From Candidatus Micrarchaeota archaeon (lineage in GTDB: Archaea > Micrarchaeota > Micrarchaeia > Anstonellales > JAHKLY01), in contig JAHKLY010000001.1 of assembly GCA_020854825.1 (NCBI GenBank), forward strand, positions 210,483 through 274,482: a stretch of DNA of 64,000 nt. Reading direction: 5' to 3'. How positions within the stretch are numbered: the first letter of the stretch is position 1; each line of letters starts with the position of its first letter. Positions 16,110 to 34,752 of this stretch are shown here, piece by piece. The position numbers and the translations under genes were made by a program. Below the pieces are notes generated by a model. The model was given only the letters and a program-made list of their open reading frames with translations, searched no databases and was not told the origin of the DNA.

Positions 16110-16225
16110 TCTTTCTTTTTGGTTGAGCTTTTGACATCTTTGATGTCAAATTTTTAAACATTTTTCAAATGTTTAAAAGCTTTTACTTTCTTTTCTAAAG
16201 AAAGAAAAAGGTTAAAAGTAAAAAA
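16110..16225. repeat. Hairpin/mirror-repeat module with nested double-hairpin insert
   Basis: TTTGACATC-TTT-GATGTCAAA and TTTTAAACATTT-TTC-AAATGTTTAAAA hairpins between AGCTTTT direct repeats (16126-16132, 16178-16184); TTTCTTT/AAAGAAA tracts. Confidence 0.7.
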
Positions 16226-16422
16226 TGGACCTGGGGGGAATTGTTCTGCGAATCAAAATTGAAGTCAAAATTCTTCGAATTTTGAGATCCTTTTTGAACG
16301 CGTTGCGTTCAAAATCTCAACGCTTCGCGTTGAACCCCCGGCCTCCTGCATTCCCGAGTCCTTTCTTTTCCCTAAAAGAAAGGCTATGCCAAGCAGGCGC
16401 GCTACCGCTGCGCCACAGGCCC
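16226..16422 (-). tRNA. tRNA-Ala(GGC) with two introns (37/38 and 58/59)
   Basis: Exons 16422-16387, 16350-16330 and 16240-16226 join to a 72-nt cloverleaf GGGCCTG...CCTGC-TTGGCAT-GCAGG...GGGGG-TTCAATT-CCCCC-CAGGTCC-A with G3:U70; introns 36 and 89 nt. Confidence 0.92.
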
Positions 16423-16455
16423 ATATCAATATTATTCTTAGTTTATTTTAAAAGA

Positions 16456-16798
16456 TTAACTTATAATTTTAAATTCAATTACAAGCACACCAAACTTTTT
16501 TCATCTTTTCTTGAATAGTATTTATACATTGAGTTATTAGCAGATTCAATAGTTTTATGTCCTTTTTCATATTTTTTGAGATCATAATTTTCATAAGCTT
16601 CTTCAAAAGTTTTGAATTTATCCAGTTCAATAGCATCTACTTTTAGACTTTCTTTATTTTCCGGGCTTCTATAGAAAACAATAGTTATTTTATATTTAGA
16701 TTCTGCCTTTTTTCATCAAAAAGCCATATTTCTATTTTTTTATCACCTTTCCTTATCTGCTCAAATGGAATAGGATTAAGATGCATTATGTGTTGTAT
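16456..16798 (-). pseudogene. ASCH domain protein pseudogene
   Basis: HIMHLNPIPFEQIRKGDKKIEIWLFDEKRQ, frameshift, TIVFY...FKTFEEAY...MYKYYSRKDEK, frameshift, FGVLVIEF; ATA at the expected start position. Confidence 0.75.
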
Positions 16799-16828
16799 TT
16801 CAATTACCTAATTAGAATAAAAAGAAAG

Positions 16829-17059
16829 TTATGAAGGAGAAATGTAAACTACAGAATCTCCTCTTAATAATATTGTTCCAAATCCTTTCTGAACTTCACC
16901 ATCTTTTAAAAATTCAGCTTTTTCTAAAACAATATTCATGTGTATATCATAAGATACCATCACTCCTCTAAATTCAACATGACCTTTTAAACCAATAACC
17001 ACTGTGTTGTTTAATGCTGTGTTTAAAACATCAAATGGTCTTCTTTTTTGTTCCTCCAT
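16829..17059 (-). CDS. Sm-like archaeal protein (SmAP/Lsm)
   Basis: RPFDVL, YDIHMNIVL (Sm1), LLRGDSVVYIS (Sm2). Confidence 0.95.
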   Translation of the reverse strand: MEEQKRRPFDVLNTALNNTVVIGLKGHVEFRGVMVSYDIHMNIVLEKAEFLKDGEVQKGFGTILLRGDSVVYISPS

Positions 17060-17122
17060 TTAATCACCTCTAAAAAAACAAAAGTTTTCTTATTATTAAT
17101 TTTTATGTAAAACAATTTAAAC

Positions 17123-17581
17123 TTATAGGTTATCCATTTTGATTACAGTATCAGCAGTATTTTTTAATGCGATACTAAATCCAGGCTCTCCTCCTATTAC
17201 AATTGTTTCTTTTCCATGTTCTTTTGCTTTAACTAAAACAGGCCTGAAATCTGTATCTCTTGTCATTAATGCAATAACATCAATATGTGGATTAAATATT
17301 TGTTCAATGGCCTCACATGCCATAGTTACATCTACATCTCCAGAAGTTATTACTGGTTGATATCCTTGATTAATCATTGCTTCAATTAATTTATCTGATG
17401 CATATTGGTCAAGAAATACCTTTCCTATTTTAATTTTTCCATATTTCTTTAATTCTTTTTTTAATGCGTCTAAATCTAAATGCATATCTTTTCTTATAAC
17501 ATTTGGACCGTCTATAAAAAGAGCAATATTTTTATCATTTTTCTTTTTAAGTAAATGTCCGATCTTTTCTAGAACTGTCAT
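17123..17581 (-). CDS. NYN domain protein (TIGR00288-like)
   Basis: IDGPNV, GDVDV, TRDTDF, ALKNTAD. Confidence 0.9.
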
Positions 17582-17593
17582 TATTATTACCTC

Positions 17594-18295
17594 CTATATA
17601 TTGAAGAAATTTTTTGCATTTTCGTATGTTTTTTCTTCAACTTTTTCTTCTGAAACACCGAGGGCATCTGATATAATTGAAATACTTTTATAAATGTCAA
17701 ATAAATTTTTGCCCAAATAAGGTGCATCAGTTTCTATTACTAGATTATGCAAGCCAACATCTTTTATTACTTTCTTTTTTAAGTCTGATTTAATTGGAGG
17801 AATTGAAATTAACATATTATGTTTAACTGCTTTTTTAGCAGAATCTCTATTACCAGAATAACAATGCAATAGAACAGGTAATTCAAAATTTATCAATCGA
17901 TCTATGACTTCATCTTCTGCTTTTCTTGAATGTATTAGAACTGGAAGTTTTAATTCTTCTGCTAAACACAACATTTTTTCAAAAACAATTTTTTCATTTT
18001 TTATTTGTTCTTTAGTTTTACCCCAATGATAATCTAATCCGATTTCTCCTATTGCTATTGGTTTTTGATGTTTTATAAATTCAATCCATTCATCAACGAT
18101 TGTTAAATCATTTAAATCTAATACTGTATGTGGGGCAATACCTAATGCACAATATACGGATTTATATATTTTACCTATTTCAACAGCCTTTTGATTAGCT
18201 TCGTGTGAATACCCACAGGTAACTGCAATTTGATTATTTATAAATTCTATTTTATTAAATTTATCTAAATGACAGTGTGTATCAAAAATAACCAT
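17594..18295 (-). CDS. tatD: TatD family nuclease
   Basis: DTHCHL, IGEIGLDY, IHSRKA, HCYSG, ETDAPY; true start at 18295, the longer ORF is antisense to aIF5A. Confidence 0.92.
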   Translation of the reverse strand: MVIFDTHCHLDKFNKIEFINNQIAVTCGYSHEANQKAVEIGKIYKSVYCALGIAPHTVLDLNDLTIVDEWIEFIKHQKPIAIGEIGLDYHWGKTKEQIKNEKIVFEKMLCLAEELKLPVLIHSRKAEDEVIDRLINFELPVLLHCYSGNRDSAKKAVKHNMLISIPPIKSDLKKKVIKDVGLHNLVIETDAPYLGKNLFDIYKSISIISDALGVSEEKVEEKTYENAKNFFNI

Positions 18296-18368
18296 GCTAA
18301 AATAAGCAATCATTAACTTTATAAAGTCTAACCTATAATAAGATTTACTTATTCTTCTAGGTGATAAT

Positions 18369-18770
18369 ATGACAGGGGAAAAATTATATGTGGACTCAAA
18401 AAGTTTAAAAGTAGGAAAATACATGTTGATTGAAGACATCCCATGTAGGATAGTTAATATTGAAACTTCCAGACCAGGGAAACACGGGCATGCAAAAATG
18501 AGAATAACTGGAGTGGGAATATTTGATGGACAAAAAAAACAATGGCTTGGAGCAGGAGGACATGATGTTGAAGTTCCAATTATTACAAGGAGTAATGCAC
18601 AAGTTGTTTCTGTATCTGGAAATAGTGCACAATTAATGGATGTTAAAACATATGAAATATTTGAATTGCCAATTCCAGAAGAAATGATGTCAGAGGCAGA
18701 AGCAGGAGCAGAAGCTGAATTATTAGAGGCCATGGGCAGAAAAACAATTCAAAGAATTAAGAAAGCATAG
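18369..18770 (+). CDS. eif5A: Translation factor aIF5A
   Basis: Hypusine loop SRPGKHGHAK. Confidence 0.96.
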   Translation: MTGEKLYVDSKSLKVGKYMLIEDIPCRIVNIETSRPGKHGHAKMRITGVGIFDGQKKQWLGAGGHDVEVPIITRSNAQVVSVSGNSAQLMDVKTYEIFELPIPEEMMSEAEAGAEAELLEAMGRKTIQRIKKA

Positions 18771-18779
18771 GTGGGAGTT

Positions 18780-19085
18780 ATGGATATTAATATTAAAAAT
18801 AAAAAAGAAAATAAATTGTTAAACAGAACAGAAGTAGAATTTGAAGTTAGTTATGAATCATCAACCCCGAGTAGACAACAAGTTATACAAAAGTTAGCAG
18901 CATTATTAAAAGTAAAATCAAATTTAGTTATATTGAGTGAATTAAGAAGTGATTTTGGGAACAAAAAAGCAAAAGCAAAAGCAAATATTTATGTTGATGA
19001 AGAGACAATGCAAGACATAGAAAGAGAGTATTTAATCAAAAGATCTCATAAGGAAGAATCTAAAAAAGAGGAAGCAAAAGAATGA
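18780..19085 (+). CDS. rps24e: 30S ribosomal protein S24e
   Basis: ENKLLNRTEV, STPSR, FG...AKANIY; followed by S27ae. Confidence 0.93.
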   Translation: MDINIKNKKENKLLNRTEVEFEVSYESSTPSRQQVIQKLAALLKVKSNLVILSELRSDFGNKKAKAKANIYVDEETMQDIEREYLIKRSHKEESKKEEAKE

Positions 19086-19095
19086 GGTGTGATTA

Positions 19096-19275
19096 ATGGG
19101 TAAGAAAAAGAGAAAAGTAAAGAAAACTGGAAAAAAACCAAAAAAACCAGTTAAAAAAGAGATTAAAACATACAAAAAAATAAAATCTTGTCCTAAATGT
19201 GGGCCTGGAGTTAAGTTAGCGGACCATAAAGATAGATTATCATGTGGAAAATGTGGATATTACGAGAAAAAGTAA
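19096..19275 (+). CDS. rps27ae: 30S ribosomal protein S27ae (missing from the ORF track, 59 aa)
   Basis: Translates MGKKKRK...[30 protein letters not shown]; GAGGTG RBS. Confidence 0.93.
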
Positions 19276-20003
19276 ATGATATTCTCCTTATTTTATTATT
19301 TTCCTCCTTTTTATTAATTTTATTTACTCTTCCAGAAATTAATTCATATTCCTTTAATGAATATATTATAGGTATTAGTATCATATTTTTATTATCATTA
19401 TTTATTTTAAGCAAATATGGATTTAAACTTTGGTCAATAACTATGATTTTTTTTCTAATTTTTTCTTTAATAAGAGATAATATGATTTTATTAGCGCCTT
19501 CATTGATTTTTTTATGTTTTCCATTTTATTGGGAATCACAAAAAGGGAAAAAATATACAAAAGTACTATCTGAATATGGATTATATTTTAAAAACAAATT
19601 TTCTCTTTTAATTTATGGAATTGTTGGTTTTTTTGGCATTGTTTTTTTGGTTGTTTTAATTGGATTAGTATTTTATCTTTTTGGGCTGAATGATCAACAG
19701 AATGTTAAAGAAGTAGTTAAATCTTTACCTTTAATTTCTATTCCTTTAGCTATTATTCTTGCTCCATTAGCAGAAGAGATTTTTTTTAGGGGGTTTTTAT
19801 ATAAAAAAATAGGAATTTGGATATCTGCAGTAATTTTTGCATTATTACATTTTTCTTATGGATCTATTGTTGAAATTGCTGTTGCTTTTGCAATTGCATT
19901 GTTTTTAACATATTTATTTATTAAAACAAAATCTTTATGGCCTTCAATAATCGCACACAGTCTTTTTAATTTATTTGCATTAGGAGTAATGTGGTTATTA
20001 TGA
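19242..20003 (+). CDS. CPBP (CAAX protease-like) intramembrane metalloprotease
   Basis: [24 protein letters not shown]; multiple TM helices; start uncertain. Confidence 0.88.
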
Positions 20004-20953
20004 ATGTTTTAGGAATAGAAAGCACAGCACATACATTGGGAATTGGATTATTTGATGGTAAAAACCTATTTCATTCTAAAGATATGTATAAACCAAAAAA
20101 TGAAGGAATTATACCTAGAAAAGCAGCAGACCATCATTTAGAAGTTTTTAACTTTTTAATCGAAAATGTGTTAGATGAATCTAATTTAAATTTAAATAAA
20201 ATAACTGGGATTGCGTTTTCACAAGGTCCAGGCATAGGACAAACATTACAATTTGGATGTTCATTAGCAAGATATTTGGCATTAAAATATAAAAAACCTT
20301 TAATTCCTGTTAATCATTGTCAAGCACATATTGAGATAGGTAAATGGAATTGTAATCTTAAAGATCCTTTAACAATTTATGTTTCTGGTGGAAATACGCA
20401 ATTAATAATAGAAAGAAATAGTAAATACTATGTATTAGGTGAAACTTTAGATATTGGTATGGGTAATTTATTTGATACTTTTGGTAGAATAATGGGTTTG
20501 GAATTTGCTCATGGATCTGTTTTATCTGAAATGGCAGAAAAAGGAAAATATATAGATCTACCATATTCAGTTAAAGGAATGAATATTGTTTTTGGTGGGT
20601 TGTTAACTGCTTCTAAAAAAGCACTTAAGAATCATAAGAAAGAAGATATTGTATATTCAATGATGCATAATGCTTTTGCATCTTTAACAGAAGCTTCTGA
20701 AAGAGCGTTATGTTTAACACATAAACACGAAATTCTGCTTTGTGGAGGAGTTGCACAAAATGTTATGTTTCAAAATATGCTTAAAAAAATGGCATATCTG
20801 CATGAGGTTAAATTTGCAGTTCCTAAGAATGAATATAATGCAGATAATGGAGCTATGATCGCATTATTAGGGCATAAACTATTAAAAAATAAAAAAACAA
20901 TTCCAGTTAAAAATTCAGTGCCTAGACAAAGATGGCGTGTTGATAAAGAATAG
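20000..20953 (+). CDS. kae1: KEOPS t6A synthase Kae1
   Basis: GIESTAHT, VNHCQAHIE, YVSGGNT, GETLDI, DNGAMIA. Confidence 0.96.
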   Translation: MNVLGIESTAHTLGIGLFDGKNLFHSKDMYKPKNEGIIPRKAADHHLEVFNFLIENVLDESNLNLNKITGIAFSQGPGIGQTLQFGCSLARYLALKYKKPLIPVNHCQAHIEIGKWNCNLKDPLTIYVSGGNTQLIIERNSKYYVLGETLDIGMGNLFDTFGRIMGLEFAHGSVLSEMAEKGKYIDLPYSVKGMNIVFGGLLTASKKALKNHKKEDIVYSMMHNAFASLTEASERALCLTHKHEILLCGGVAQNVMFQNMLKKMAYLHEVKFAVPKNEYNADNGAMIALLGHKLLKNKKTIPVKNSVPRQRWRVDKE

Positions 20954-20988
20954 TAAGCAATAAATACTTTTTCTAATTAATCAAGTAT

Positions 20989-21615
20989 ATGACACAAAAT
21001 ATTTTAGCACAAATCGGAATCGGAGGGATAGGTAGTTTATTAAATGAAATAGAAAAAGCTACATCTAATGAAATATTTTATTTATTTTTTTTAATCCTAG
21101 TAATTTCAATAGGTATGCTTATTATCTGGTATTTATATAGAAAATTAGCAAAAAGAGATATGTTTGAATTAAAATTACATGCTAAAAATGGTGAAAAATT
21201 ATCAATAGGAAAAGAATTATTTTCAACATTAGTTTATCTTTTTAAGTATGTATTATTATTTCCTTTGTTTGTTATGTTAATGTTTGTGCTAGTATCATTA
21301 GGATTTATATTTTTATCTTCTGGATTAGACCTTTCAACAGTTTTCTTTTTTTCAATCGCATTAATCTGTGTAGTTAGATTATTAGCATATATTAAAGAAG
21401 ATACAGCACAAGAAATTGCAAAATTAATCCCTTTTGCATTAGTGTCTTCGATTTTATTAAATCCAAATCTTTCAGACGGGTATATATTTCCGGCTATGTC
21501 AGATATAGAACTAGGGTTAGCAGGCATATGGTATTATTTTATTTTTATTTTTGTGTTTGAAATAAGTTTAAGGGTTATATATAGAATTACAAGTGTATTT
21601 AAGAGAAATGATTAA
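20989..21615 (+). CDS. Hypothetical multi-pass membrane protein
   Basis: About 5 hydrophobic helices. Confidence 0.7.
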   Translation: MTQNILAQIGIGGIGSLLNEIEKATSNEIFYLFFLILVISIGMLIIWYLYRKLAKRDMFELKLHAKNGEKLSIGKELFSTLVYLFKYVLLFPLFVMLMFVLVSLGFIFLSSGLDLSTVFFFSIALICVVRLLAYIKEDTAQEIAKLIPFALVSSILLNPNLSDGYIFPAMSDIELGLAGIWYYFIFIFVFEISLRVIYRITSVFKRND

Positions 21616-21965
21616 TTTTCTCCTCCTTTAAATGCTTTTTTTCCTAATAATACTAATAAGATTACACATATAATTCCAACAATTATTGATTGTTGAATGT
21701 CTTTAAATTGAGAATACCACATATATCCTAAGAAGACACCAAAACCTGTAAATACAATGGTTCTTAAATTATTGGCTAACCCTCCAGAGATATTTTTTTC
21801 TTTGAAAAATAAAAATGAAGCACCGAATACAAAAAGACCTATTCCTATTGAATAATATATTGGATCTGTTGGGTAATTATAATACCAAATATATCCTGCT
21901 CCAGAACCAATTAATAATGCAGCCAAAACCCGCCCAATTTTTACTAATTCTTTTGTAATTGCCAT
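21612..21965 (-). CDS. Small 4-TM membrane protein with internal duplication
   Basis: GYIWY and GYMWY halves; GGTGA RBS before ATG 21965. Confidence 0.65.
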   Translation of the reverse strand: MAITKELVKIGRVLAALLIGSGAGYIWYYNYPTDPIYYSIGIGLFVFGASFLFFKEKNISGGLANNLRTIVFTGFGVFLGYMWYSQFKDIQQSIIVGIICVILLVLLGKKAFKGGEN

Positions 21966-22027
21966 TTTCGTCACCAATAATTTTAATGGATATATTTAAA
22001 AAGACAAATAATATAAAACTAATACAT

Positions 22028-22287
22028 CCCGCGGTAGCTCAAAGCTTTGAATTATTTTATTTTAAAGCGAGCAATGGTAGAGCGATCGGCTGTAACTTTT
22101 TTCTTTCTTTAAAAAGAAAGAAAAAAATTAACAAAAAAGAAAGAAACAAGTGGTCAAAGTACGATGCACAATTTTGTGTTGGAAATCGCTCTGAAACCGA
22201 TAGGTTGGGATTTCGAAACACTTTTTTCTGTTTTAAGAAAAAAGAGAACCCATACTAAAAATATGGACGAAGATATCTCCCGCGGGA
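22028..22287 (+). tRNA. tRNA-Tyr(GTA) with three introns (15/16, 37/38, 59/60)
   Basis: Exons 22028-22042, 22075-22095, 22196-22217 and 22274-22287; acceptor CCCGCGG/CCGCGGG with C1:G72; BHB-like helices GCTC/GAGC and TTCG/CGAA; introns 32, 100 and 56 nt. Confidence 0.92.
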
Positions 22288-22312
22288 TATTCTTTTTTAT
22301 AAGGTAATCAGA

Positions 22313-22546
22313 ATGAATAAAGTAATTATTGCAGGATATAATTTAAATGGAAAATCAAAAATATCAAAAGAGGTATTGGGCCGAGAAGTTTTTCAAGTAC
22401 TATCCGGAAGATTTTGTTGTATTGGTATTGTAGAAAGTATTACTAAATCTAGGGGAGGGTTCAGAGTTCAATCACCAAAAAAAACATTATTTTTCTCAAT
22501 TAATTCAATAAGTGATGGTTCAAAGGTCTATTCTGAACACAGATGA
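22313..22546 (+). CDS. Hypothetical small protein
   Basis: 77-aa ORF with AGGT RBS-like site; no family recognised. Confidence 0.45.
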   Translation: MNKVIIAGYNLNGKSKISKEVLGREVFQVLSGRFCCIGIVESITKSRGGFRVQSPKKTLFFSINSISDGSKVYSEHR

Positions 22547-22574
22547 TTTAAATTTAACTATATTAATAATTATT

Positions 22575-23288
22575 ATGGATTTTTTTAATTTTTGGGATGT
22601 ATCTAAAATAATAGGAGCAACAATAATTATTGGGTTTTTATTAATTTTAGTTTTATCAGTTATTTCTTTATTTTTATTATCTAGATTTCATAAGAAAGGA
22701 AAAATAATTTTTCCGTATGTTATTTTAAGCATGGTGAGTACCTTAGAAGTTCCAATTGAAAGAATACTTAATTTCTTTCAAATAAAAGAAATTGATTTAG
22801 ATTTAATAATAACTAAATTAAGAAATAAATTAAATAAAAAAGCTTTTTCTAAAGTTCCTTTAAATGAAAGAGCGATTTTTTTCCCTCAATGTTTAAGAAG
22901 TTTTGAATGCCCGGCAAGAACAGGGGAAGAAGGAATTTATTGTATAAATTGCAGAAAATGTGGCTTAGGACACATAATAAAAGAAGCAGAGCAATTAGGA
23001 TATAGGGTGTTTATAGCACCAGGAAGTTCATTAGTTAAAAGGATGGTTAAACAATATAAACCAAAAGCAGTTTTAGGTGTTGGATGTTCGATGGAAGTCA
23101 AAGAAGGAACTGCATTAATAGAATCTTATGGTATACCTGTCCAAGCGGTTTCATTATTAAGAGGAGGATGTGTAAATACAAGAATTGATTGTTTTGAATT
23201 ATTAAAAACTATTTATTTAGGTGTTGATATATCAGAAAAAGAACTTAGAAAAAAAGCAGAAGAAGCAAATAAGTTTTGGAAAGATTAA
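22575..23288 (+). CDS. DUF116 family protein (Cys-rich, N-terminal TM)
   Basis: FFPQCLRS..CPA, CINCRKC, IAPGSS, GVGC, GCVNT. Confidence 0.85.
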   Translation: MDFFNFWDVSKIIGATIIIGFLLILVLSVISLFLLSRFHKKGKIIFPYVILSMVSTLEVPIERILNFFQIKEIDLDLIITKLRNKLNKKAFSKVPLNERAIFFPQCLRSFECPARTGEEGIYCINCRKCGLGHIIKEAEQLGYRVFIAPGSSLVKRMVKQYKPKAVLGVGCSMEVKEGTALIESYGIPVQAVSLLRGGCVNTRIDCFELLKTIYLGVDISEKELRKKAEEANKFWKD

Positions 23289-23850: not shown

Positions 23851-26529
23851 ATGGCCAAATTATTAGATATGCGCATAGAACGATTAATTACTGAGCGCTT
23901 TAAGGATTTAACTGAAATACAAAAAAAATCTTTTGAAGCAATACTTAATGAAAATAATACTTTAATAATAGCACCAACAGGACACGGAAAAACTTTAGCA
24001 GTTATGCTCCCAGTATTCCATAATATAATAGATACTGAAAATAAAGGTATTCAGGTATTATATATAACTCCATTAAAGGCTTTAAATAGAGATTTATTGG
24101 AAAGAATTGAATGGTGGTGTAATAAATTAGGTATTTCCCATGCAGTAAGGCATGGGGATACATCAATATCTGAAAGAGCAAAACAAACAAGAAAACCTCC
24201 AAAATTATTGATTGTAACTCCAGAAACATTTGGGGCAATATTAGCAGCACCAAGATTAGGTCAGGCGTTAAAGAATTGTAAGTATGTAATTATTGATGAA
24301 GTTCATAGTATTTGTGATAATAAAAGAGGCGCACAATTAAGTTTAGCACTTGAAAGATTAAAACAAAAAACAAATCCCCAGATAATAGGTCTAAGCGCAA
24401 CTATAGGTTCTCCAGAAAGTATAGCAAAGTATTTATCCCCAAATAAAGAATGTCAGATAGTATCATTAACTGAACCAAAAAAAACAGAAATTTTTGTAGA
24501 AAAACCAAAACCAGCTATAAATGTACCTAAAAATTTAGATTTAGATGCAGAGGCAGTTGGTAGATTATATAGAGTAAAAGAAATAATTGAAAAAGATAAA
24601 ACCTTAATTTTTGTTAATACGCGCCAAGTAGCAGAAGCATTATCTTCTAGACTGCATTTATTAAAAGTTAAAATAGGGATTCATCATGGTTCTTTAGCAA
24701 AACAAGTTAGATTGAGAGCTGAAAAAGATTTTAAAGCAAATCAAACAGAAGCACTTTTAGCTACGAGTTCTTTAGAATTAGGTATAGATATTGGAGATAT
24801 CGAGAATGTGATACAGTATATGTCTCCAAGACAGGTTTCTCGGCTTATTCAAAGAATAGGGAGAAGCGGACATGGAATAAATAGAATTTCTAGAGGCCAT
24901 ATAATAGTTTCAGATATGTATGATACACTTGAATCTTTAGCAGTGTCATTACTTTTAAAACAAGGAATCCAAGAAAAAAATAATATAGAATCTAAAGCAA
25001 TAGATGTTATTGCACACCAATTAGTTGGACTTCTTTTAGAAAACGAACAAATTGAGTTAATGAAAGCACATAAGATTTTAGAAAAAGCTGCAGCATATAA
25101 TATTTCTTATGGGGAATTAGAAGAAGTTGCAGAGCAATTGAGCAAACAACGAATATTATATTTAGATAAATCTGATAATACTTTGAAAAAATCTTTGAAT
25201 ACTAGAACTTATTATTATACTAGATTATCAACAATTCCAATAACTGTTCGCAGATTAGTTAAAGATATTGAATTAAATAAAGTTGTATCTACATTAGATG
25301 AAGCATTTGCTTCTTCCTTAGAAATTGGAGAAACATTTATTACAAAAGGACTTCCTTGGAGAATAGTTGAATTAACAGAAGAAGAAGTATTAGTAGAAGC
25401 AGGCGATGATTTTTCACTATCGTTACCAGATTGGGAAGGAGAACAAATCCCAGTACCATTTATAGTTTCTCAAAAAGTAGGAGAGTTAATGGATTTATAT
25501 TATAATAAAAAGATTTTAGAAATAAATAAATATATAAATTTTGTTGGAACTCTGGACTTACCAGATGAAAAATGGTATCCAAAAAAAGATGAATTGATTA
25601 TAGAATGTTTTGCAGATTTAATAGTTATACATTCATTATTTGGTACAAAAACAAATGAAACAATTGGCAGATGTTTATCATATTTATTAACAATAAAACA
25701 AGGCACAAGCAATCAGTTAATAGTAGACCCTTATAGTATTATTATTAATACTTCCAAGGTTGTTAAATCACAAGAGATCAAAGATTTGATTGAAAATTTG
25801 GAAGATATAAGAGCATTAATAGAAAATTCTTTAGCTGACTCAAAGTTATTTTTATTTAAGTTTAATCATATTGCATATAATTTTGGATTAGTAAATCAAA
25901 AACAAGGAGTTTCAAAAAGAGCAGTCAAATATTTAACTCAAACACCGATTTATAAAGAAACAATGCGGGTTTTACTTTCTGATTATTTTGATGTTCCAAA
26001 TGCAATCAAAATTATTGAATTGGTAAAAGCAAATAAAATAATAATAAAATGCAAAAATCCAAAGGAATTAAGTGAATGGAGCAGGCAAGTTTTGACAAAA
26101 GTGCATGCAGGAGAATTAATGGCACCTATAGAGCCACACAGTGAAATAATGAAAGCGTTTGCAAAACACCTTTTAGAAAAACGCATTAAATTAATATGTT
26201 CAAATTGTAACAGACCGTTCTACATTAAAATAGATGATGCAGATGAAAAGATAAAATGTTTAAATTGTAAAGGGTCTGTTATTGGATATGCAGGATTTTT
26301 TAAAGACGGAAAATTAGTAGAAAAAAACAAAAAGTTTATAGATGAAAGTGCACCCCTTATACAAGCATATGGTAAACGTGCATTAATTGCTTTAAGTGTT
26401 TATGGGATAGGACCAGAAACAGCAAGAAGAATATTACAAAAAATACATAAAGAAGAAGATCATTTTTTCTATGATTTATTAGAAGCGCAAAAGAATTTTA
26501 TAAAGAATAAAAAATACTGGCGCATGTAG
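23851..26529 (+). CDS. lhr: Lhr family DEAD/H helicase with C-terminal Zn finger and HhH
   Basis: APTGHGKT, TPLKALNRD, DEVH, SAT, HHGSL, LELGIDIG, QRIGRSGH, CxxC pairs, YGIGPETA. Confidence 0.93.
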   Translation: MAKLLDMRIERLITERFKDLTEIQKKSFEAILNENNTLIIAPTGHGKTLAVMLPVFHNIIDTENKGIQVLYITPLKALNRDLLERIEWWCNKLGISHAVRHGDTSISERAKQTRKPPKLLIVTPETFGAILAAPRLGQALKNCKYVIIDEVHSICDNKRGAQLSLALERLKQKTNPQIIGLSATIGSPESIAKYLSPNKECQIVSLTEPKKTEIFVEKPKPAINVPKNLDLDAEAVGRLYRVKEIIEKDKTLIFVNTRQVAEALSSRLHLLKVKIGIHHGSLAKQVRLRAEKDFKANQTEALLATSSLELGIDIGDIENVIQYMSPRQVSRLIQRIGRSGHGINRISRGHIIVSDMYDTLESLAVSLLLKQGIQEKNNIESKAIDVIAHQLVGLLLENEQIELMKAHKILEKAAAYNISYGELEEVAEQLSKQRILYLDKSDNTLKKSLNTRTYYYTRLSTIPITVRRLVKDIELNKVVSTLDEAFASSLEIGETFITKGLPWRIVELTEEEVLVEAGDDFSLSLPDWEGEQIPVPFIVSQKVGELMDLYYNKKILEINKYINFVGTLDLPDEKWYPKKDELIIECFADLIVIHSLFGTKTNETIGRCLSYLLTIKQGTSNQLIVDPYSIIINTSKVVKSQEIKDLIENLEDIRALIENSLADSKLFLFKFNHIAYNFGLVNQKQGVSKRAVKYLTQTPIYKETMRVLLSDYFDVPNAIKIIELVKANKIIIKCKNPKELSEWSRQVLTKVHAGELMAPIEPHSEIMKAFAKHLLEKRIKLICSNCNRPFYIKIDDADEKIKCLNCKGSVIGYAGFFKDGKLVEKNKKFIDESAPLIQAYGKRALIALSVYGIGPETARRILQKIHKEEDHFFYDLLEAQKNFIKNKKYWRM

Positions 26530-26767
26530 GCCTTTTTCTTTCTTTTAAAAAAAGAAAGAAAAACTCCTGGGAAAAAGAAAGAAAAAGAAAACAAGACAAA
26601 AAGAACAAAGAAAAGGCCTTAGGAAAACGGAGAATTTTCAAAAACTATTCTAGATTGAATAATTCTAAACAGAATAGTTTCTTAAAAAGTGTTCATAAAA
26701 CGTGAACGTAATTTATTATTCTGATTTTCTTTCTTTCCCAAGGGTTTCTATCAAAAGAAAGAAAGGC
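26530..26767. mobile_element. 238-bp MITE-like/structured intergenic element with imperfect terminal inverted repeats
   Basis: Fills the gap between convergent stops: TAG|GCCTTTTTCTTTCTTTT...AAAAGAAAGAAAGGC|TTA; several internal hairpins; no transposase in window. Confidence 0.5.
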
Positions 26768-27361
26768 TTATTCTTTAAAATTAGTTGAAACGTTTATTAA
26801 TTCTGCATTTCTTGTTAATTCTACAATATAATAAAAATCAGCAGTTTCTGAATTCCATTCAACGATCCAATTATCTTGACTATTTGTAGGTGATTTAACA
26901 TTAGATTTTGCGTTGAGATACTGGTCTAAATATTGTTTAACATTTTCTGTTCCCTCAATTGTGTGCGAAGCTATAATTGCCTCTTCATTAAATATTAAAT
27001 AACAAATTGATTGTCCAACACAAATTTCGCAATTTTTAGTAATATAATCTGGAGGCTGAGTTACAAAACCTTGTTCAGGATAGTTATAATATAAATGAAT
27101 TCTTTCAGGACAAGGAGAGGTAGGATTAACAGTAACTCTTGCTTTTAAAGTATAATATTTGCCCTTTCCTTCTTCTATCGGTTGATTTTCAGCAATAGAA
27201 ATAATCTCAAATTCAGCAGTATTTCCATATTTTGCTTTTAAATCTTCTAATACGGATGTTTCTGCATCTTTTTCAGTAAGTGGTGAAGTCCAATTATATA
27301 AAAATAATAAGCAAACAGAAATTATTATTAATAATGATACTATCCACCCAATTGTATTCAT
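26768..27361 (-). CDS. Membrane-anchored hypothetical protein
   Basis: N-terminal TM; CPER and EEAIIASH segments. Confidence 0.7.
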   Translation of the reverse strand: MNTIGWIVSLLIIISVCLLFLYNWTSPLTEKDAETSVLEDLKAKYGNTAEFEIISIAENQPIEEGKGKYYTLKARVTVNPTSPCPERIHLYYNYPEQGFVTQPPDYITKNCEICVGQSICYLIFNEEAIIASHTIEGTENVKQYLDQYLNAKSNVKSPTNSQDNWIVEWNSETADFYYIVELTRNAELINVSTNFKE

Positions 27362-29125: not shown

Positions 29126-29139
29126 GTTAATCACAGTAA

Positions 29140-29631
29140 TTATGAGAAAGTTAATTCTTCAATAATTTTAACTGGTAATCTAAATTCTATCTCTAATTTG
29201 TATTTGGTAAAACCTAAACACCCACATCCAAACTCATCTGTTTTTGAAAAGAGTCCTCCTATTAATTGTATGCTGTTTTTTTCATCCCAAAGTTCTCTAA
29301 TAAATTGGGCAACATTTAACCACCCAGTTCTAGAAGGTTGGGGATCATATTCTATAGTTGGAATGACAATGGGATTAGAAATATAAAATCTAGATATTTC
29401 TTCAAGTGTATTTAGAACACTGTCTTCCTCTTCAAGAATAATCAGATAATTTTTTAATTTTCTTAATGTTTCTTGTAATCCTAATTCATAGCTACGATTT
29501 TTTTCATCATTTTTTTTAAAAAAGAAAGGATGAACTGCTACAGTTACTCCTCTTTTTTCAGAAATTAGTTTATCGTAGTCTGTTGTTGAATATATCCCCT
29601 GTTTTAATTTATATATTTGATCAATTGACAT
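29140..29631 (-). CDS. Hypothetical protein
   Basis: 163-aa ORF with TATA-like element upstream. Confidence 0.6.
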   Translation of the reverse strand: MSIDQIYKLKQGIYSTTDYDKLISEKRGVTVAVHPFFFKKNDEKNRSYELGLQETLRKLKNYLIILEEEDSVLNTLEEISRFYISNPIVIPTIEYDPQPSRTGWLNVAQFIRELWDEKNSIQLIGGLFSKTDEFGCGCLGFTKYKLEIEFRLPVKIIEELTFS

Positions 29632-29689
29632 GATATATTTATTTTTTCTTAGTTTAAAAACCTATTGTTTAATTAAATACCACGTATCT

Positions 29690-30046
29690 TTATGGATAAG
29701 TTATCTCATTTGCATAAACAGTAATTCCTTGATAATAGGATTTTGTTACTCCTATAACCTTTACAAAATCTTTTTCAGATAAAATTTTTAAAATTTCTAA
29801 ATCATTTTGACATATAACAGTTAAACAATTACCATCACATATTCTTAATGAAACAGTTTTTTCATTAAATGTTATTTTTTCTATTGTTCCTTGAAATTCA
29901 ATTAATGTATCTCTAGGAATTTTGTTAGTAGGTGTAGAATATAAAGAAATTTGAGTTGCAATTGTAGTATTTATAAATATAAATAATAATACAATTGATA
30001 AAACAGCAATTGAAAGTGCTAATAATATAATTTTTTTATTATCCAT
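29690..30046 (-). CDS. Membrane-anchored OB-fold protein
   Basis: N-terminal TM; FQGTIEKI...VKVIGVTKSYYQG pattern. Confidence 0.6.
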   Translation of the reverse strand: MDNKKIILLALSIAVLSIVLLFIFINTTIATQISLYSTPTNKIPRDTLIEFQGTIEKITFNEKTVSLRICDGNCLTVICQNDLEILKILSEKDFVKVIGVTKSYYQGITVYANEITYP

Positions 30047-30050
30047 TTAA

Positions 30051-30434
30051 TCATCTTATTAGATTTTCAAAAAGCATTGTATTTTCAGCAATTTTCCAAG
30101 AGACACTATATCCTTTTGGAGTTTTATTTAGTAAATGTAAGGGTATAAATCTCCAGCCTTTTCTTGAAACTCTCCATGCTACCATCGTAGTAATTCCAGT
30201 TATTTCTTCCCATTTTTTTAATCCATTTATTTGATCTGGTTTTAAAGATAAAGAAGTAGTATCCCAAGCTTTACATTCAAGTGCATATTGTTTTCCTTTT
30301 CTAAAAACTAGAATATCTGGAGATAATGAATTCCCTCCGGATCCGGCTGCGCGTATTACTTCAAAACCTTGTTCTGAAAACCATTTAATTAATTCTCTTT
30401 CAGCTCTTGCGCCTTTTCTATATTTGCTAACCAT
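30051..30434 (-). CDS. hjc: Holliday junction resolvase Hjc
   Basis: KGARAEREL, RAAGSG, PDI, ECK. Confidence 0.95.
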   Translation of the reverse strand: MVSKYRKGARAERELIKWFSEQGFEVIRAAGSGGNSLSPDILVFRKGKQYALECKAWDTTSLSLKPDQINGLKKWEEITGITTMVAWRVSRKGWRFIPLHLLNKTPKGYSVSWKIAENTMLFENLIR

Positions 30435-30537
30435 AATTTGATTTAAATTATGTAATTTTTAATATTATCTATTCCACAAAAAGACTTAAAGGACAAAAGA
30501 AGAGCGCTTTTAAATATTATCATTTATAGTATTTAAC

Positions 30538-31083
30538 ATGGAAACGCAAATCAAAGTGGGAGACTGTATGACTAAGGGAATCTTAGTTTTATCAACTTCC
30601 AGTAATGCTAAAGAAGCAGCAGAAGTTATGACAAATGCTAATGTTGGTAGTGTTATAGTTATGGATAAAGGAAAGGCAGTGGGTATAGTAACTGAAAGAG
30701 ATATTGTTAGAAAAGTAGTAGGAACAAATAAAGATCCTGCTAAAATAAAATTAAACAAAATAATGGGCCAACCTTTAAGAGTAATCAAAGCAGATACTTC
30801 AATTGGTGATGCTGCATTAGCAATGAGAAAATATAGAATAAAAAAACTTCCTGTTATTGATAAAAAAGCAATGGTCATAGGAATGATTACTGAAACAGAT
30901 ATTATTAGTGCTTATCCAGGATTAGTAGATGTATTAATTGAAGTTGCTTTACAAAATAGATTTACTGGCGGTGAAAGATTTAGTGGAGTTTGTGAACACT
31001 GCGGTGCGTATTCTGAACATTTAAAAAGAGTTGGTGGTTTTCTTCTTTGCAGTGAATGCAGAGAAAAGGATGAAATTGTATAA
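30538..31083 (+). CDS. CBS-pair protein with C-terminal Zn ribbon
   Basis: GIVTERDIV, GMITETDI, CEHCG...CSEC. Confidence 0.9.
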   Translation: METQIKVGDCMTKGILVLSTSSNAKEAAEVMTNANVGSVIVMDKGKAVGIVTERDIVRKVVGTNKDPAKIKLNKIMGQPLRVIKADTSIGDAALAMRKYRIKKLPVIDKKAMVIGMITETDIISAYPGLVDVLIEVALQNRFTGGERFSGVCEHCGAYSEHLKRVGGFLLCSECREKDEIV

Positions 31084-31192
31084 AGATACATTTATAAATA
31101 CAAAAAACCACAAGATAGATGTTAAAACATCAAAAAATTAATAAAATCACAACTTACTGCTCATTTATATCAAAAGCAGCAGAAAATAGTGA

Positions 31193-31462
31193 ATGTCAAT
31201 GGAAATAGAAGCAAAAGTAATAACCAATGCAAAGAAAGATAATATACAAATGGAAAATGGCAAACTTAAAATACGAATAGGTGAACAGCCATTAAAAGGA
31301 AAAGCAAATAAAGCAATTGAGAAATTGATAAAACAAGAAATAGGGTTTACTGTGCAAATTATTTCCGGGACAAAAGATCGCAATAAAGTATTGCAAATAG
31401 ATTGCAGTGAGCAGGAGTTAGTGAACAAAATAGGTGATATAAATGGGAAAAACATACATTGA
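31193..31462 (+). CDS. DUF167 (UPF0235) protein
   Basis: KVITNAK, PLKGKANK, IISGTKDRNK. Confidence 0.8.
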   Translation: MSMEIEAKVITNAKKDNIQMENGKLKIRIGEQPLKGKANKAIEKLIKQEIGFTVQIISGTKDRNKVLQIDCSEQELVNKIGDINGKNIH

Positions 31463-32693
31463 TACTTTGAAATATGTAGTTTATGCAGATTTAGAAATAC
31501 GCGGGCTTGTTGAAAAGCCGGATGTTGTTGGTGCTATTTTTGGTCAAACAGAAGGATTACTTGGTGATGAATTAGATTTAAGAGACCTTCAAAAAAATGG
31601 AAGAATTGGAAGAATTGAAGTAGAATTAAATGCAAAATCAGGTAAGACTACAGGAAACATAAAATTACCATCAAGCTTAGATATGGTTGAAACTTGTATC
31701 TTAGCTGCAGCTTTAGAAACAGTTGATAGGGTAGGACCATGCGAAGCATTTATTAAAGTTGAAAAAGTTGAAGATACAAGAAATCTTAAAAGAAAAACAA
31801 TTATTGATAGGGCAAAGAATTTACTTAGGAATTTACTCAATACTGAGATTCCTGAAAGTAAAGTTATTTCTGATACAGTTAGAAATGAAGTTAAAACCGC
31901 AGAGATAATTGAATATGGGAAAGACAGATTAGCAGCAGGACCAAATATTGATAAATTTGATTCAATAATTCTTGTAGAAGGCAGAGCAGATGTATTAAAT
32001 TTATTGAGAAGTGATATACCAAATGTTGTTGCTGTTGGTGGCGCAAAAATAAATGACACCATTATAAAATTAGGAAGAGAAAAAGAATTAACTGTATTTT
32101 TAGATGGAGACAGAGGAGGAGACATAATATTAACTCAATTAAAAGAAGTACTTGAGATAGATTTTGTCGCAAGAGCTCCAACTGGGAAAGAAGTAGAAGA
32201 ATTAACAAGAAAAGAGATAATTAAAGCATTAAGAAATAAACTTCCAGTAGAACAAGTAGATGCACACAAACCAAACGATACTAAAATGAATTATGAAAGA
32301 ACAGAAGAAGAAATTAAAAAACCTATGCGGTCCTCAACGTCTTCCCAATCAAGGTCTTCAAAGATTACAACAACTCCAGTTAAAAAATTTGAAAAACCAG
32401 ATTACAGTGATAAACCCCCAAAGGAATTAGAGGATAGTTTAAAGCATCTTGAAAATACTTTGAAAGCTAAATTCTATGACAAAACATATGCTCAGATAAA
32501 AGAATTACCTGTAAGAGATGTTATTAAAACATTAGAAAACGAAAAAGAAGTAGAAGCAGTAGTTTTTGATGGGATTGTAACACAAAGATTAGTTGATTTA
32601 GCAGAATCTCAAGGAGTTAAATATTTAATAGGGATAAAAGCAGGAAATATATTTAAAAAACCAGAGAATTTAGTAATAATTACAAAGGATTAG
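31443..32693 (+). CDS. dnaG: Archaeal DnaG (exosome-associated, TOPRIM)
   Basis: VVGAIFGQTEGLLG, VEGRADV, DGDRGG, FDGIVTQRL. Confidence 0.96.
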   Translation: MGKTYIDTLKYVVYADLEIRGLVEKPDVVGAIFGQTEGLLGDELDLRDLQKNGRIGRIEVELNAKSGKTTGNIKLPSSLDMVETCILAAALETVDRVGPCEAFIKVEKVEDTRNLKRKTIIDRAKNLLRNLLNTEIPESKVISDTVRNEVKTAEIIEYGKDRLAAGPNIDKFDSIILVEGRADVLNLLRSDIPNVVAVGGAKINDTIIKLGREKELTVFLDGDRGGDIILTQLKEVLEIDFVARAPTGKEVEELTRKEIIKALRNKLPVEQVDAHKPNDTKMNYERTEEEIKKPMRSSTSSQSRSSKITTTPVKKFEKPDYSDKPPKELEDSLKHLENTLKAKFYDKTYAQIKELPVRDVIKTLENEKEVEAVVFDGIVTQRLVDLAESQGVKYLIGIKAGNIFKKPENLVIITKD

Positions 32694-32739
32694 TTTCCTT
32701 TCCTTTTATTTTTTAAATATTCGTATTCTATATTATCAA

Positions 32740-33522
32740 ATGGATTTCTTAACTGCGATAATTCTAGGTATAATTCAAGGAATAACTGAATGGCTACCTA
32801 TAAGTTCTTCTGCGATGGTTACTTTAGCTGGAAAATTAATTTTTAATTTTAATTATTCAGAAGCATTAGGTAATGCGATTTGGCTGCATGGGGGTACTTC
32901 ATTAGCAGCCATAATTTATTTTAGAAATGAAATAATCAATCTTTTCAAAAGCATTTATAAAAAAGATAGAAGCAAAGATTTATTGGTTTTTTTAAGTATA
33001 ACAACACTTTTTAGTTTTATAATCGCAGGGATATTAAGTTTATTTTTATTTTCAATTCATATTCCTGAAGTAATTTTTACATTATTTATTGGATTTTTTT
33101 TATTAATAATTGCGTTTTTACATAAAAATAGAAAAGAATCTAAAATAGAAGAAGCACTAACAAAAACAAAAGCAACAGTGGTGGGGGTATTGCAAGGAGT
33201 ATCAGTTTTACCTGGGATAAGTAGATCTGGAGTTACAGTTTCTGTGTTATTAATTCAAAATTTTTCTTTGAAAAGTTCATTTAAATTAAGTTTTTTAATG
33301 AGTATCCCTGCAACATTAGGTGCATCTATTTTTCTTCCATTACTAAAACAAGATTTTGTTATAACTGGGCCTTTAGTTTTAGGAGGAATTGTTGCATTTA
33401 TAACTGGGTTGTTAACTATAAGAATGTTGATGACTTTTGCTGAAAAAGTTAATTTTTATAAAGCAACATTTATTTTAGGTTTAGTTGTTGTATTATTAGG
33501 TTTATTTCAATTGTTTTTCTGA
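32740..33522 (+). CDS. uppP: Undecaprenyl-diphosphate phosphatase family
   Basis: QGITEWLPISSS, LPGISRSG, SFLMSIP. Confidence 0.9.
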   Translation: MDFLTAIILGIIQGITEWLPISSSAMVTLAGKLIFNFNYSEALGNAIWLHGGTSLAAIIYFRNEIINLFKSIYKKDRSKDLLVFLSITTLFSFIIAGILSLFLFSIHIPEVIFTLFIGFFLLIIAFLHKNRKESKIEEALTKTKATVVGVLQGVSVLPGISRSGVTVSVLLIQNFSLKSSFKLSFLMSIPATLGASIFLPLLKQDFVITGPLVLGGIVAFITGLLTIRMLMTFAEKVNFYKATFILGLVVVLLGLFQLFF

Positions 33523-33563
33523 GTTTCAGAAGCTTTTTAAAGGGTGACTACCTTAATTAATCT

Positions 33564-34022
33564 ATGTTGGTAATCCTTGTTGAGGGTAAAGGACCTAAAA
33601 TACGTTCAAATAAATCGGATATAGTATTCAAATTATTGCGAGCATATTTTGGAAAATCGCTTGAAAAACATAAACTCGAATTAATATTAGAAAAATATAA
33701 TAAAGGAATGTTAAAATCTTCTAAAAAATATAAGGTTGATAAATTAATATTAATAGTTAATCCATTAGAATATGCAGAAGATGGTGCAACTTTTGAAATC
33801 ATATTTGAAGGTAAGATGAATCTCAAAAAATTACTTGAAGAAGCATTTATTTTACAAGGATTTAGAGACAATATAAAAGATCATTATAAAATGGATAAAA
33901 TTAAAAAATTAATATTTACTACTGAAGTAAGGTTGCATATAGATTCGTTTGATGAAACGAAAATAAAAAAGAGTAGTTTAAGGGATATTAAAGAAGTCGC
34001 GATGACATATTATGATATTTAA
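33564..34022 (+). CDS. Hypothetical protein
   Basis: 152-aa ORF co-oriented with its neighbours. Confidence 0.55.
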   Translation: MLVILVEGKGPKIRSNKSDIVFKLLRAYFGKSLEKHKLELILEKYNKGMLKSSKKYKVDKLILIVNPLEYAEDGATFEIIFEGKMNLKKLLEEAFILQGFRDNIKDHYKMDKIKKLIFTTEVRLHIDSFDETKIKKSSLRDIKEVAMTYYDI

Positions 34023-34031
34023 GTGATAAAT

Positions 34032-34559
34032 ATGGCATTTAAAAATGAGATCCAATTTAAACATAAAAGTGATTCATATACATTAACTCAAGTAATTAAT
34101 ATGTTAAACTCATTAGGATATACTAGTGATAAGTTATCAAGAGATGAAAAAGCAGGCATAATTTTAGGAGAAGGGATAAAAGAGATGATACAACAATTTA
34201 ATAGAGATTTTGATATTAAAGATCAAAGTGGAAATTTAACTGATTTTGTTTTAAGTAAGATTATAGAAGCAGGTAAAATAATTAAAGCACAAAGTCAATT
34301 AAAAACTTTAAATTATTTTAAAGGAGAACCAAATGGGATGTTAGATGAAGAAACAGAATTAGCTATAAATAAATTTAAAGTGGATAATAACATCTCAAAA
34401 ATTGACGGGAAATTAGATAAAGAAACAATAAACTTATTAGATGAAAAAATAGATGTTTTAATGTCTTTAAAAGGGTATGTTCCAGTTAAGATAGATAATT
34501 CTGAATTTACTAATTTTTATTATGTAGATCAAGATGGGACATTGACTGTTTCAAGATAA
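34032..34559 (+). CDS. Peptidoglycan-binding (PG_binding_1-like) domain protein
   Basis: AQSQLKTLNYFKGEPNGMLDEETELAINKFKVDNNISKIDGKLDKET, plus a degenerate N-terminal copy (MLNSLGY...GILGEGIKEMIQQFNRD). Confidence 0.75.
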   Translation: MAFKNEIQFKHKSDSYTLTQVINMLNSLGYTSDKLSRDEKAGIILGEGIKEMIQQFNRDFDIKDQSGNLTDFVLSKIIEAGKIIKAQSQLKTLNYFKGEPNGMLDEETELAINKFKVDNNISKIDGKLDKETINLLDEKIDVLMSLKGYVPVKIDNSEFTNFYYVDQDGTLTVSR

Positions 34560-34560
34560 A

Positions 34561-34752
34561 TGGGCCCGCCCGGATTGTCAGCTTGCTGGTAAATTTTGTT
34601 TCTGCAATTCTTTTGAACCGGGGACCTTCTGCATTTTGAACTTTTTTTGGTGCAGCTTTTTAGGATGACCAAAAAAGGTGCGTCAAGCAGACGTCTTAAC
34701 CATTATCCACTTTCTAATACTTTGATATTAAAAAGTTCTGGACCACGGGCCC
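34561..34752 (-). tRNA. tRNA-Val(GAC) with three introns (15/16, 37/38, about 59/60)
   Basis: Exons 34752-34738, 34702-34681, 34633-34612 and 34574-34561; acceptor GGGCCCG/CGGGCCC; BHB helices GTCC/GGAT and TTGA/TCAA; introns 35, 47 and 37 nt. Confidence 0.92.

Follow-up and report, generated by a model that had tools for sequence, protein, structure and literature searches.

'Transposing' tRNA introns have been described in the Thermoproteales (Fujishima et al. 2010, Mol Biol Evol 27:2233, as cited in parts of PMC4090602, 10.64898/2026.10.13.758758 and PMC10714607), and the available sections of PMC4090602 call the mechanism of their transposition unknown. According to extracts of PMC3239211, 56% of the tRNA genes of ARMAN-2 (Candidatus Micrarchaeum acidiphilum) are disrupted, with introns at position 59/60 and at other non-canonical sites; its epsilon2 splicing endonuclease cuts both strict and relaxed bulge–helix–bulge (BHB) motifs, including that of an intron at 59/60, and the assayed introns were 13 and 25 nt long. 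Disrupted tRNA genes are also found in other DPANN lineages (PMC5829648, in extract). A census of Asgard archaea (10.64898/2026.10.13.758758), as far as its accessible text goes, reports heavily interrupted tRNA genes that standard tools miss, repeated gains at BHB-competent sites and almost no intron families spanning tRNA types, and gives no general route of tRNA intron arrival. Here we describe a cassette of about 60 nt from a 64,000-nt stretch of a Candidatus Micrarchaeota archaeon (assembly GCA_020854825.1, contig JAHKLY010000001.1, positions 210,483–274,482; hereafter the window), which recurs in tRNA introns and behind the 3′ ends of genes. On balance, BHB tRNA introns specific to this lineage probably spread from one tRNA gene to another and turn over there, with the cassette as their common building block.

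The genome that holds the window (G000, with contigs C1–C7) amounts to 828 kb at 28% GC on seven contigs and was rated 97.6% complete. The traits of a Thermoproteales-type family were all found in it, namely introns more than 70% alike in distinct genes, at different tRNA positions and with differences between congeners. In contrast to the Thermoproteales, the endonuclease is ARMAN-2-like epsilon2, the genome measures 0.83 Mb with a GC content of 28%, a single cassette predominates (in 26 of the 59 introns of at least 30 nt) and is also extragenic at gene 3′ ends, and the cassette occurs in several families of the order, GC-rich genomes included. The endonuclease type, the introns at 59/60 and other non-canonical sites, and the mixture of strict and relaxed BHBs are shared with ARMAN-2, whereas here 33 of 34 predicted tRNA genes are interrupted, each by one to three introns of mostly 30–100 nt. 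The heavily interrupted genes missed by standard tools, and repeated gains at BHB-competent sites, recall the Asgard archaea; unlike there, two thirds of the introns belong to families that span tRNA types. In being short, palindromic, multicopy DNA with copies behind genes and T-rich tracts, the cassette also resembles repetitive extragenic palindromes (REPs) with their RAYT enzymes, miniature inverted-repeat transposable elements (MITEs) and archaeal oligo-T terminators, but no cognate transposase was found among four families searched, and most copies lie within tRNA genes, where they share one orientation and sit at splice sites. No account of the cassette or of extragenic copies of tRNA introns was found in the accessible parts of the literature searched, the scope of which did not extend to the 2010 Thermoproteales paper or to supplements. 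Intron transposition itself is known; what is new here is that one intron cassette also lies outside tRNA genes, at the 3′ ends of open reading frames (ORFs) and tRNAs.

The cassette consists of a pyrimidine arm (Y), a loop of 2–7 nt, a complementary purine arm (R1), a spacer of 6–8 nt and a further purine block (R2). It starts with T(A/G)(A/G)CC, followed by Y with the consensus TTTTTCTTTCTTTT, and its spacers include CGTTAACG, CCTCAACG, GCTTAACC and CTCCTGGG, among others. In the window, one copy on the plus strand (22093–22151; nhmmer E = 1.7e-10, covariance model match 22090–22153) makes up the 5′ end of the second intron of tRNA-Tyr(GTA), where Y, R1, the spacer ATTAAC and R2 could be told apart. 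A second plus-strand copy, matched by both the profile and the covariance model, lies at 26525–26620, directly behind the ORF of an Lhr-type helicase (23851–26529), the stop codon TAG of which is the first triplet of the TAGGCC-Y start; here Y, R1, the spacer CTCCTGGG and R2 are followed by further purine blocks and a closing AAAAGGCCT. An earlier model-made reading of the letters (the sequence-only reading) had singled out three 14-mers in each of these two places, and all six were recovered exactly, at 22097–22110 (TTTTTTCTTTCTTT), 22113–22126 (AAAGAAAGAAAAAA) and 22133–22146 (AAAAAAGAAAGAAA) in the intron and at 26533–26546, 26550–26563 and 26572–26585 in the intergenic element. It had also described both third blocks as followed by AAACAAG, which is true of the Tyr copy; in the intergenic element AAAACAAG starts five bases later.

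A genome-wide listing of the 11-mer core and its complement showed them to be part of one longer unit recurring at many loci. A profile built from 15 seed copies, run over the whole genome with a locus threshold of E ≤ 0.01, gave 41 separate cassette loci; four shuffled genomes, in which letters were permuted inside blocks of 15 or 60 nt so that local composition was preserved, gave 0, 1, 0 and 0. Hairpins of at least 10 bp with a 5′ arm of at least 90% pyrimidine numbered 48 in the genome versus 0 and 1 in two shuffles. The exact hairpin pattern was found 11 times in the genome, four times in a congener and once each in two other genomes; the remaining 37 relatives searched gave none, and a reversed control pattern gave no matches. 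The module that had been proposed to be common to tRNA introns and intergenic elements is thus a single family of 41 profile loci, and the concern that such matches might be as frequent in shuffled sequence is answered by the 0 or 1 locus per shuffle.

For placement of the copies, the tRNA genes had to be located anew. ARAGORN, without and with its intron option, and the Rfam tRNA model at its gathering score recovered none of the three tRNA genes in the window, and ARAGORN with the intron option made 11 tRNA calls genome-wide, some of them wrong; on this basis the tRNA sets of such genomes are badly under-annotated. A depth-first finder requiring strict BHBs solved only one of four test genes, and a home-made exon-chaining finder was used instead, in which acceptor-stem pairs serve as anchors, the D, anticodon and T arms are chained, and one unconstrained intron is permitted per third of the tRNA. 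Its raw output was rich in AT-rich false positives, which were filtered by a stem GC content of at least 55% and four removals by eye. By these approximate counts there are 34 credible tRNA genes, 33 of them interrupted, by one intron in 10 genes, two in 14 and three in nine (65 introns in total: 26 in the T loop, 20 in the anticodon loop and 19 in the D loop). Removal of the predicted introns gives cloverleaf tRNAs, and most of the joined products were recognized by ARAGORN. At least five further tRNA genes, outside the 34 predictions, were recognized only by eye.

Twenty-five of the 65 predicted introns hold a cassette (15 in the T loop, seven in the D loop and three in the anticodon loop), on the tRNA strand in 23 cases. 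Among 29 introns with a cassette or hairpin, the first T-run begins 4–8 nt past the 5′ splice site in 23. The 41 loci were first counted as 26 in predicted tRNA genes and 15 others, the latter assigned by eye to five tRNA genes missed by the finder, three positions behind or between tRNA genes, six ORF ends and one non-coding stretch. Two of the 26 (C1:36830 and C1:36952), which fall in the mis-modelled 3′ part of one prediction, were then moved downstream of a tRNA-Gly with a contiguous T arm. The corrected tally is 29 loci in tRNA genes (24 predicted, five by eye), five behind or between tRNA genes, six at ORF ends and one in an unassigned non-coding stretch. The 34 predicted tRNA genes cover 6,450 nt, or 0.8% of the genome and 3.8% of the sequence outside ORFs of at least 150 amino acids, and the enrichment in tRNA introns that had been claimed is borne out, with 24 of 41 loci falling within that 0.8%.

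Two observations were made at cassettes in other non-coding surroundings. On C7, two cassette-type hairpins (6427–6477 and about 6380–6410, locus L050) interrupt GC-rich segments, which are possibly a small structured RNA, with a cassette-type intron in a non-tRNA non-coding RNA; the finder did not call a tRNA there, and an Rfam search of C7:5900–7000 returned one weak match without meaning. In G000 and in G001, a genome of the same genus (hereafter the congener), cassettes between tRNA genes are directly preceded by a conserved hairpin of about 35 nt with the stem CATTTGAT...ATCAAATAG and flanks resembling GCACG and CGTGGC (G000 C1 at about 36,990–37,030 and 37,395–37,440; G001 locus L055 at about 440–513).

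The three tRNA genes of the window were resolved by exon chaining. tRNA-Tyr(GTA) (22028–22286, plus strand) has three introns: a 32-nt D-loop intron (22043–22074) with a strict 4-bp central helix, the 100-nt anticodon-loop intron that begins with the cassette (about 22096–22195, placed at 37/38 by tRNA structure, with a relaxed helix), and a 56-nt T-loop intron at 59/60 (22218–22273), again with a strict 4-bp helix, which carries a degenerate Y/R hairpin (22219–22246) and belongs to a family of 26 introns. tRNA-Ala(GGC) (16227–16422, minus strand) has two, a 36-nt intron at 37/38 (16351–16386) that is a miniature cassette of the TAGCC type with a relaxed helix, and an 89-nt T-loop intron at 58/59 (16241–16329) from a separate family. 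tRNA-Val(GAC) (34562–34752, minus strand) has three, in the D loop (34703–34737), the anticodon loop (34634–34680; 47 nt, a looser cassette with a strict central helix) and the T loop (34575–34611). Tyr intron 2, Ala intron 1 and Val intron 2 thus proved to be anticodon-loop introns, where the sequence-only reading had placed them. Its looser version at 16110–16213 likewise turned out to be a cassette, lying in the 3′ trailer of tRNA-Ala (16110–16217, minus strand; nhmmer E = 2.9e-8, covariance model match 16153–16217), in which the hairpin (16159–16213) is separated from the spacer and R2 (about 16110–16135) by two unrelated small hairpins. The T stem of tRNA-Tyr (within 22204–22286), GGGAT/ATCTC, gives U:A at 53:61, and in the congener the stem hardly differs; to our knowledge, G:C at this position is nearly universal.

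Predicted splice sites were examined for BHB geometry. In 40 of the 65 introns a fully paired 4-bp central helix in 3-4-3 geometry was found at the split that gives a normal mature loop. T-loop introns are regular in this respect, reading GTTCAA| ... GAAC AA| at 58/59 or TTCAAA| ... TGAA AA| at 59/60. In 31 strict-BHB introns of at least 40 nt, the intron 5′ end and the segment before the exon-pairing 4 nt form a mean of 5.5 pairs; when the ends of different introns were combined the mean fell to 2.9, and none of 2000 permutations reached 5.5. The only splicing endonuclease gene found is a 414-amino acid ORF with two matches to the catalytic domain and one to the N-terminal domain, and it aligns over its full length with the ARMAN-2 epsilon2 enzyme (PDB 4fz2, E = 2e-136).

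Pairing within the cassette was assessed on 23 aligned copies. When the outer T(A/G)A : T(T/C)A pairs are counted in, 93.9% of the Y:R1 hairpin is paired, and 10 of its 17 pairs have changed on both sides; none of 500 shuffles reached any of the measures, and slid controls gave 62–78%. In minimum-energy folds of 18 cassette introns the partner of Y was a distal purine block in 11 cases, R1 in six and a mixture in one. The 11 distal-pairing folds comprise an outer helix, a bulge, a 4-bp helix, a bulge and a long inner helix, and in these introns GGT or GGTT comes after the distal purine block, as the complement of the AACC or GACC in front of Y. This asymmetry fits pairing and not a mirror.

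Single-linkage clustering at 70% identity placed 39 of 59 introns of at least 30 nt in six families, compared with 2, 0 and 0 introns in three shuffles. The largest is the cassette family, with 26 introns across the D, anticodon and T loops. The cassettes of C4:81093 (D loop) and C4:96488 (anticodon loop) are identical over about 55 nt and differ in the last 10 nt or so, which hold the exon-pairing segment, and Val intron 2, in the anticodon loop, is more than 70% identical to a T-loop intron (C4:96577–96624). A second family, without the cassette, has two nearly identical 89-nt T-loop members that start with CGCGAAGCG, in tRNA-Ala(GGC) (16241–16329) and in a tRNA-Leu (C4:81265–81353); the congener holds a cassette-type intron at the Ala site.

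The congener is 78–84% identical in DNA to the window in the stretches compared, and its introns differ. The Tyr T-loop intron (22218–22273) is absent from it exactly at the predicted junctions. The cassette of Tyr intron 2 is retained almost base for base, with the rest of the intron diverged and a 25-nt indel. Ala intron 1 has an extra 66-nt cassette flanked by TAG...TAGA, Ala intron 2 is replaced at its T-loop site by an unrelated cassette-type intron, and the Ala trailer cassette is degenerate. In tRNA-Val, the congener has a full cassette of 81 nt as intron 2 and, in place of the T-loop intron, an unrelated one of the cassette type. Behind the helicase gene a cassette stands at the same position, diverged and with an internal insertion; between this gene and the next, the congener has about 1.1 kb more (its C7, locus L011, 2130–3500), apparently including an extra ORF. 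In all, 37 cassette loci were found in 20 regions of the congener, in the same kinds of context. The module had been put forward as a possible mechanism of intron gain, with which introns gained, lost or replaced between congeners are consistent.

A covariance model, as the sequence-only reading had suggested, was run over 121 genomes of the order and matched 26, G000 included. The distribution is patchy: all seven genomes of one genus and four of five of another were matched, compared with none of 44 in one family and none of 23 in one genus. Eleven matches were read, and they lay in tRNA introns (D loop and 37/38), behind tRNA 3′ ends, behind an ORF or between genes. Four of these loci have a GC content of 58–60%, in which the cassette keeps its AT-rich arms and has GC-rich loops. 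In another genome (G040, C3 at about 56,700–56,900, locus L038) a 16-nt copy of a tRNA 3′ end is followed by an insert of about 125 nt led by a cassette and then by the full tRNA end, which looks like a duplication from integration or cassette insertion.

The reading that we favor accounts for these features as follows. The T + (A/G)(A/G)CC + pyrimidine arm lies a few bases past the 5′ splice site. Two partners are open to Y: R1, which gives a local hairpin, and a purine block further on that precedes GGT(T). Pairing with this second partner would close the intron as the long inner helix of a BHB. The adjoining 4-bp helix between exon and intron fits the individual site (for T loops, GAAC or TGAA), and the ARMAN-2-like epsilon2 endonuclease would then excise the intron. 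The T-loop bias of the cassette (15, versus seven in the D loop and three in the anticodon loop) fits introns moving unchanged only between sites with common exon sequence. Extragenic copies without BHB flanks, at some ORF and tRNA 3′ ends, would most likely act as terminators or 3′-end hairpins by virtue of their T-rich palindrome, and they may be donors or sinks of introns, or else a by-product or an independent use of the cassette.

Several points weigh against this account. At least two tRNA genes were mis-modelled by the home-made finder (C1:36768 and C2:5184), which leaves the counts approximate. The strict central helix is absent in 25 of 65 introns, Tyr intron 2 and Ala intron 1 among them, and excision of the introns is a prediction from sequence. 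In fixed alignment columns Y:R2 is 75% paired, a value that 87 of 500 shuffles equaled or exceeded, with slid controls at 67–71%. The account gives R1, which competes with the closing helix, no role, and a T5CT3CT4 tract within a tRNA gene would by itself be expected to trigger archaeal termination. Gain, loss and replacement were seen only in three tRNA genes of one congener pair. Searches for Y1_Tnp, OrfB-type, DDE_Tnp_1 and RVT_1 proteins, and for target duplications by eye, found nothing that would account for movement.

As for the route, it is conceivable, though we hold it only tentatively, that the introns were born from a free-standing, enzyme-less palindromic cassette normally living at gene 3′ ends. 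With its own pyrimidine arm and a slippage-prone array of complementary purine units, a copy that came to lie in a conserved tRNA loop would require no more than a 4-nt exon-complementary tail to turn into a spliceable BHB intron. If so, this would be the first nameable donor of archaeal tRNA introns, and intron birth could be traced between congeners. This genome, the congener and several further genera of the order form a compact test bed for such questions: most introns are of one cassette, extragenic copies are present, congeners at about 80% DNA identity already differ by gain or loss of introns, by replacement and by inserted cassettes, and for the enzyme type a structure has been solved and cleavage can be assayed in vitro (ARMAN-2).

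The extragenic copies themselves bear on the foremost alternative, in which the cassette is primarily a terminator or 3′-end-stabilizing hairpin, with oligo-T on both strands, and its presence in introns is secondary and requires no mobility; the introns would derive from trailer sequence or from convergence on U-rich and A-rich arms that close a BHB cheaply in an AT-rich genome. The sequence-only reading had pointed to convergent gaps; the copies are not tied to these as such but lie at the stop codon of a co-oriented upstream ORF (six of six) or behind tRNA 3′ ends. In five of the six ORF-end copies the distance between the last base of the stop codon and the cassette start is 0 to 3 nt, so that TAA, TAG or TGA is, or abuts, the first cassette triplet. 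From their C-terminal sequences, four of these ORFs presumably encode ribosomal protein S10, the large subunit of DNA polymerase D, DnaK and a thermosome subunit; the other two encode a 105-amino acid protein and the Lhr-type helicase (Pfam). An 11-nt purine-rich tandem repeat (AACAAAAGAAC) stands right after the cassette behind the thermosome-like gene (C3:138,900–138,990). A 3′-end function is further suggested by the density of T5 runs, which is 0.11–0.14 per 10-nt bin just past stops versus 0.03–0.04 inside ORFs, by cassettes behind tRNA 3′ ends in both congeners and in genomes of other families, and by the AT-rich cassette kept at loci of 58–60% GC, which suggests selection. Against it, only 6 of 627 ORFs of at least 150 amino acids carry a cassette, so that it is not a general terminator, and 29 of 41 copies lie inside tRNA genes, where termination would be harmful. 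Extragenic and intronic cassettes are 75–92% identical over 63 columns, and identity of 75–95% across tRNAs and positions, loops and spacers included, points to common descent and not to convergence; replacement of introns at the same site between congeners is also at odds with this alternative, which we regard as unlikely.

A DNA element of the MITE or REP type, moved by a transposase (HUH/RAYT, IS200/IS605 or DDE) and settling wherever tolerated, behind genes and, given flanks that permit BHB excision, in tRNA genes, would explain the palindromic arms, in which compensatory changes affect 10 of 17 pairs, outer ones included, and are matched by none of 500 shuffles, the multiple copies with a patchy distribution over the order (26 of 121 genomes), and the extra 66-nt cassette flanked by TAG...TAGA in Ala intron 1 of the congener. 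The HUH/RAYT or IS200/IS605 enzymes that had been anticipated did not turn up: in this genome, rated 97.6% complete, PF01797 (Y1_Tnp) had no match, PF07282 (OrfB-type) scored 16.8 bits against a cut-off of 26.3, and neither DDE_Tnp_1 nor RVT_1 was found. Nor was there a consistent target duplication by eye, and random insertion fails to explain the site-fitting exon-pairing 4 nt at intron 3′ ends. As far as these four families go, such an origin is judged improbable.

More doubtful still is a triplex, the geometry of which the sequence-only reading had pointed out: R2 would lie as a third purine strand on the Y:R1 duplex in RNA, or the R1-spacer-R2 mirror repeat would form H-DNA, and the element might serve replication, recombination or the stability of RNA. 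Both R1 and R2 are homopurine, stand 6–8 nt apart and are mirror-related, so that R1-spacer-R2 fits the H-DNA mirror-repeat motif by sequence; it is equally a direct repeat. In fixed 14-nt windows the mirror match was 0.86 versus 0.79 for the direct match and was higher in 19 of 23 copies, a difference that we put down to the register, which slips by one base at the edges of these 14-nt windows. Read backwards, the core AAAGAAAGAAA is unchanged, like any two-G motif of such kind, and mirror and direct repeats are therefore inseparable on it. In relatives, a single hairpin may be followed by a tandem array of two, three or more [spacer+R] units, as slippage would give; one contig of sludge run X6 has an extra 23-nt unit (R + spacer) inserted at 26548; and the purine-rich tandem repeat after the cassette of the thermosome-like gene points the same way. 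We therefore favor R2 as the first unit of a variable tandem [spacer+R] array, i.e. a direct, slippage-type repeat and not a designed mirror. The folds pair Y with R2 or a later purine block, and from BHB geometry an R2 folded back would be expected to take the 3′ end away from the base of the helix, where the exon-pairing 4 nt are needed. Purine-motif RNA triplexes are, moreover, weak. The geometry is possible, yet neither a triplex nor a function for it is indicated.

Split tRNAs exist in Nanoarchaeum and Caldivirga. Cis-encoded split genes, in which exons would be transcribed separately and end at the Y arm, with Y and R2 forming the BHB in trans, would account both for the terminator-like tract that comes after each 5′ exon and for the complementary purine leader ahead of the exon that follows, and the leaders of tri-split tRNAs have their counterparts in introns of relatives (PMC10714607, in extract), but the loops are A/T-rich in G000 and GC-rich (GCGA, TTCGGG and similar) in relatives, leaving no conserved TATA-like box, although no promoter search was made, and we give this arrangement very little credence.

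The remaining observations concern the surroundings of the window cassettes. A second, looser Y/R hairpin (26727–26770, no strand assigned) was recognized by eye downstream of the helicase cassette, with a weak nhmmer match (E of 0.016–0.095); it adjoins the stop of a minus-strand ORF (26768–27361). In each of four sludge runs, one contig has 36 other letters in place of 22095–22185, i.e. most of Tyr intron 2 with its cassette; on the shorter side the match extends over just 23 letters, and these contigs, which perhaps come from a related or another organism, are no more than a hint. Many long 'skips' in the same contig comparison were set aside, their flanks being 20–29 letters and looking like repeat or foreign joins. 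Summed contig depth over 22340–22973, at the start of a DUF116 gene region, was 2–4 times that of neighboring bins in all four runs, which perhaps reflects a conserved or repeated stretch common to other organisms.

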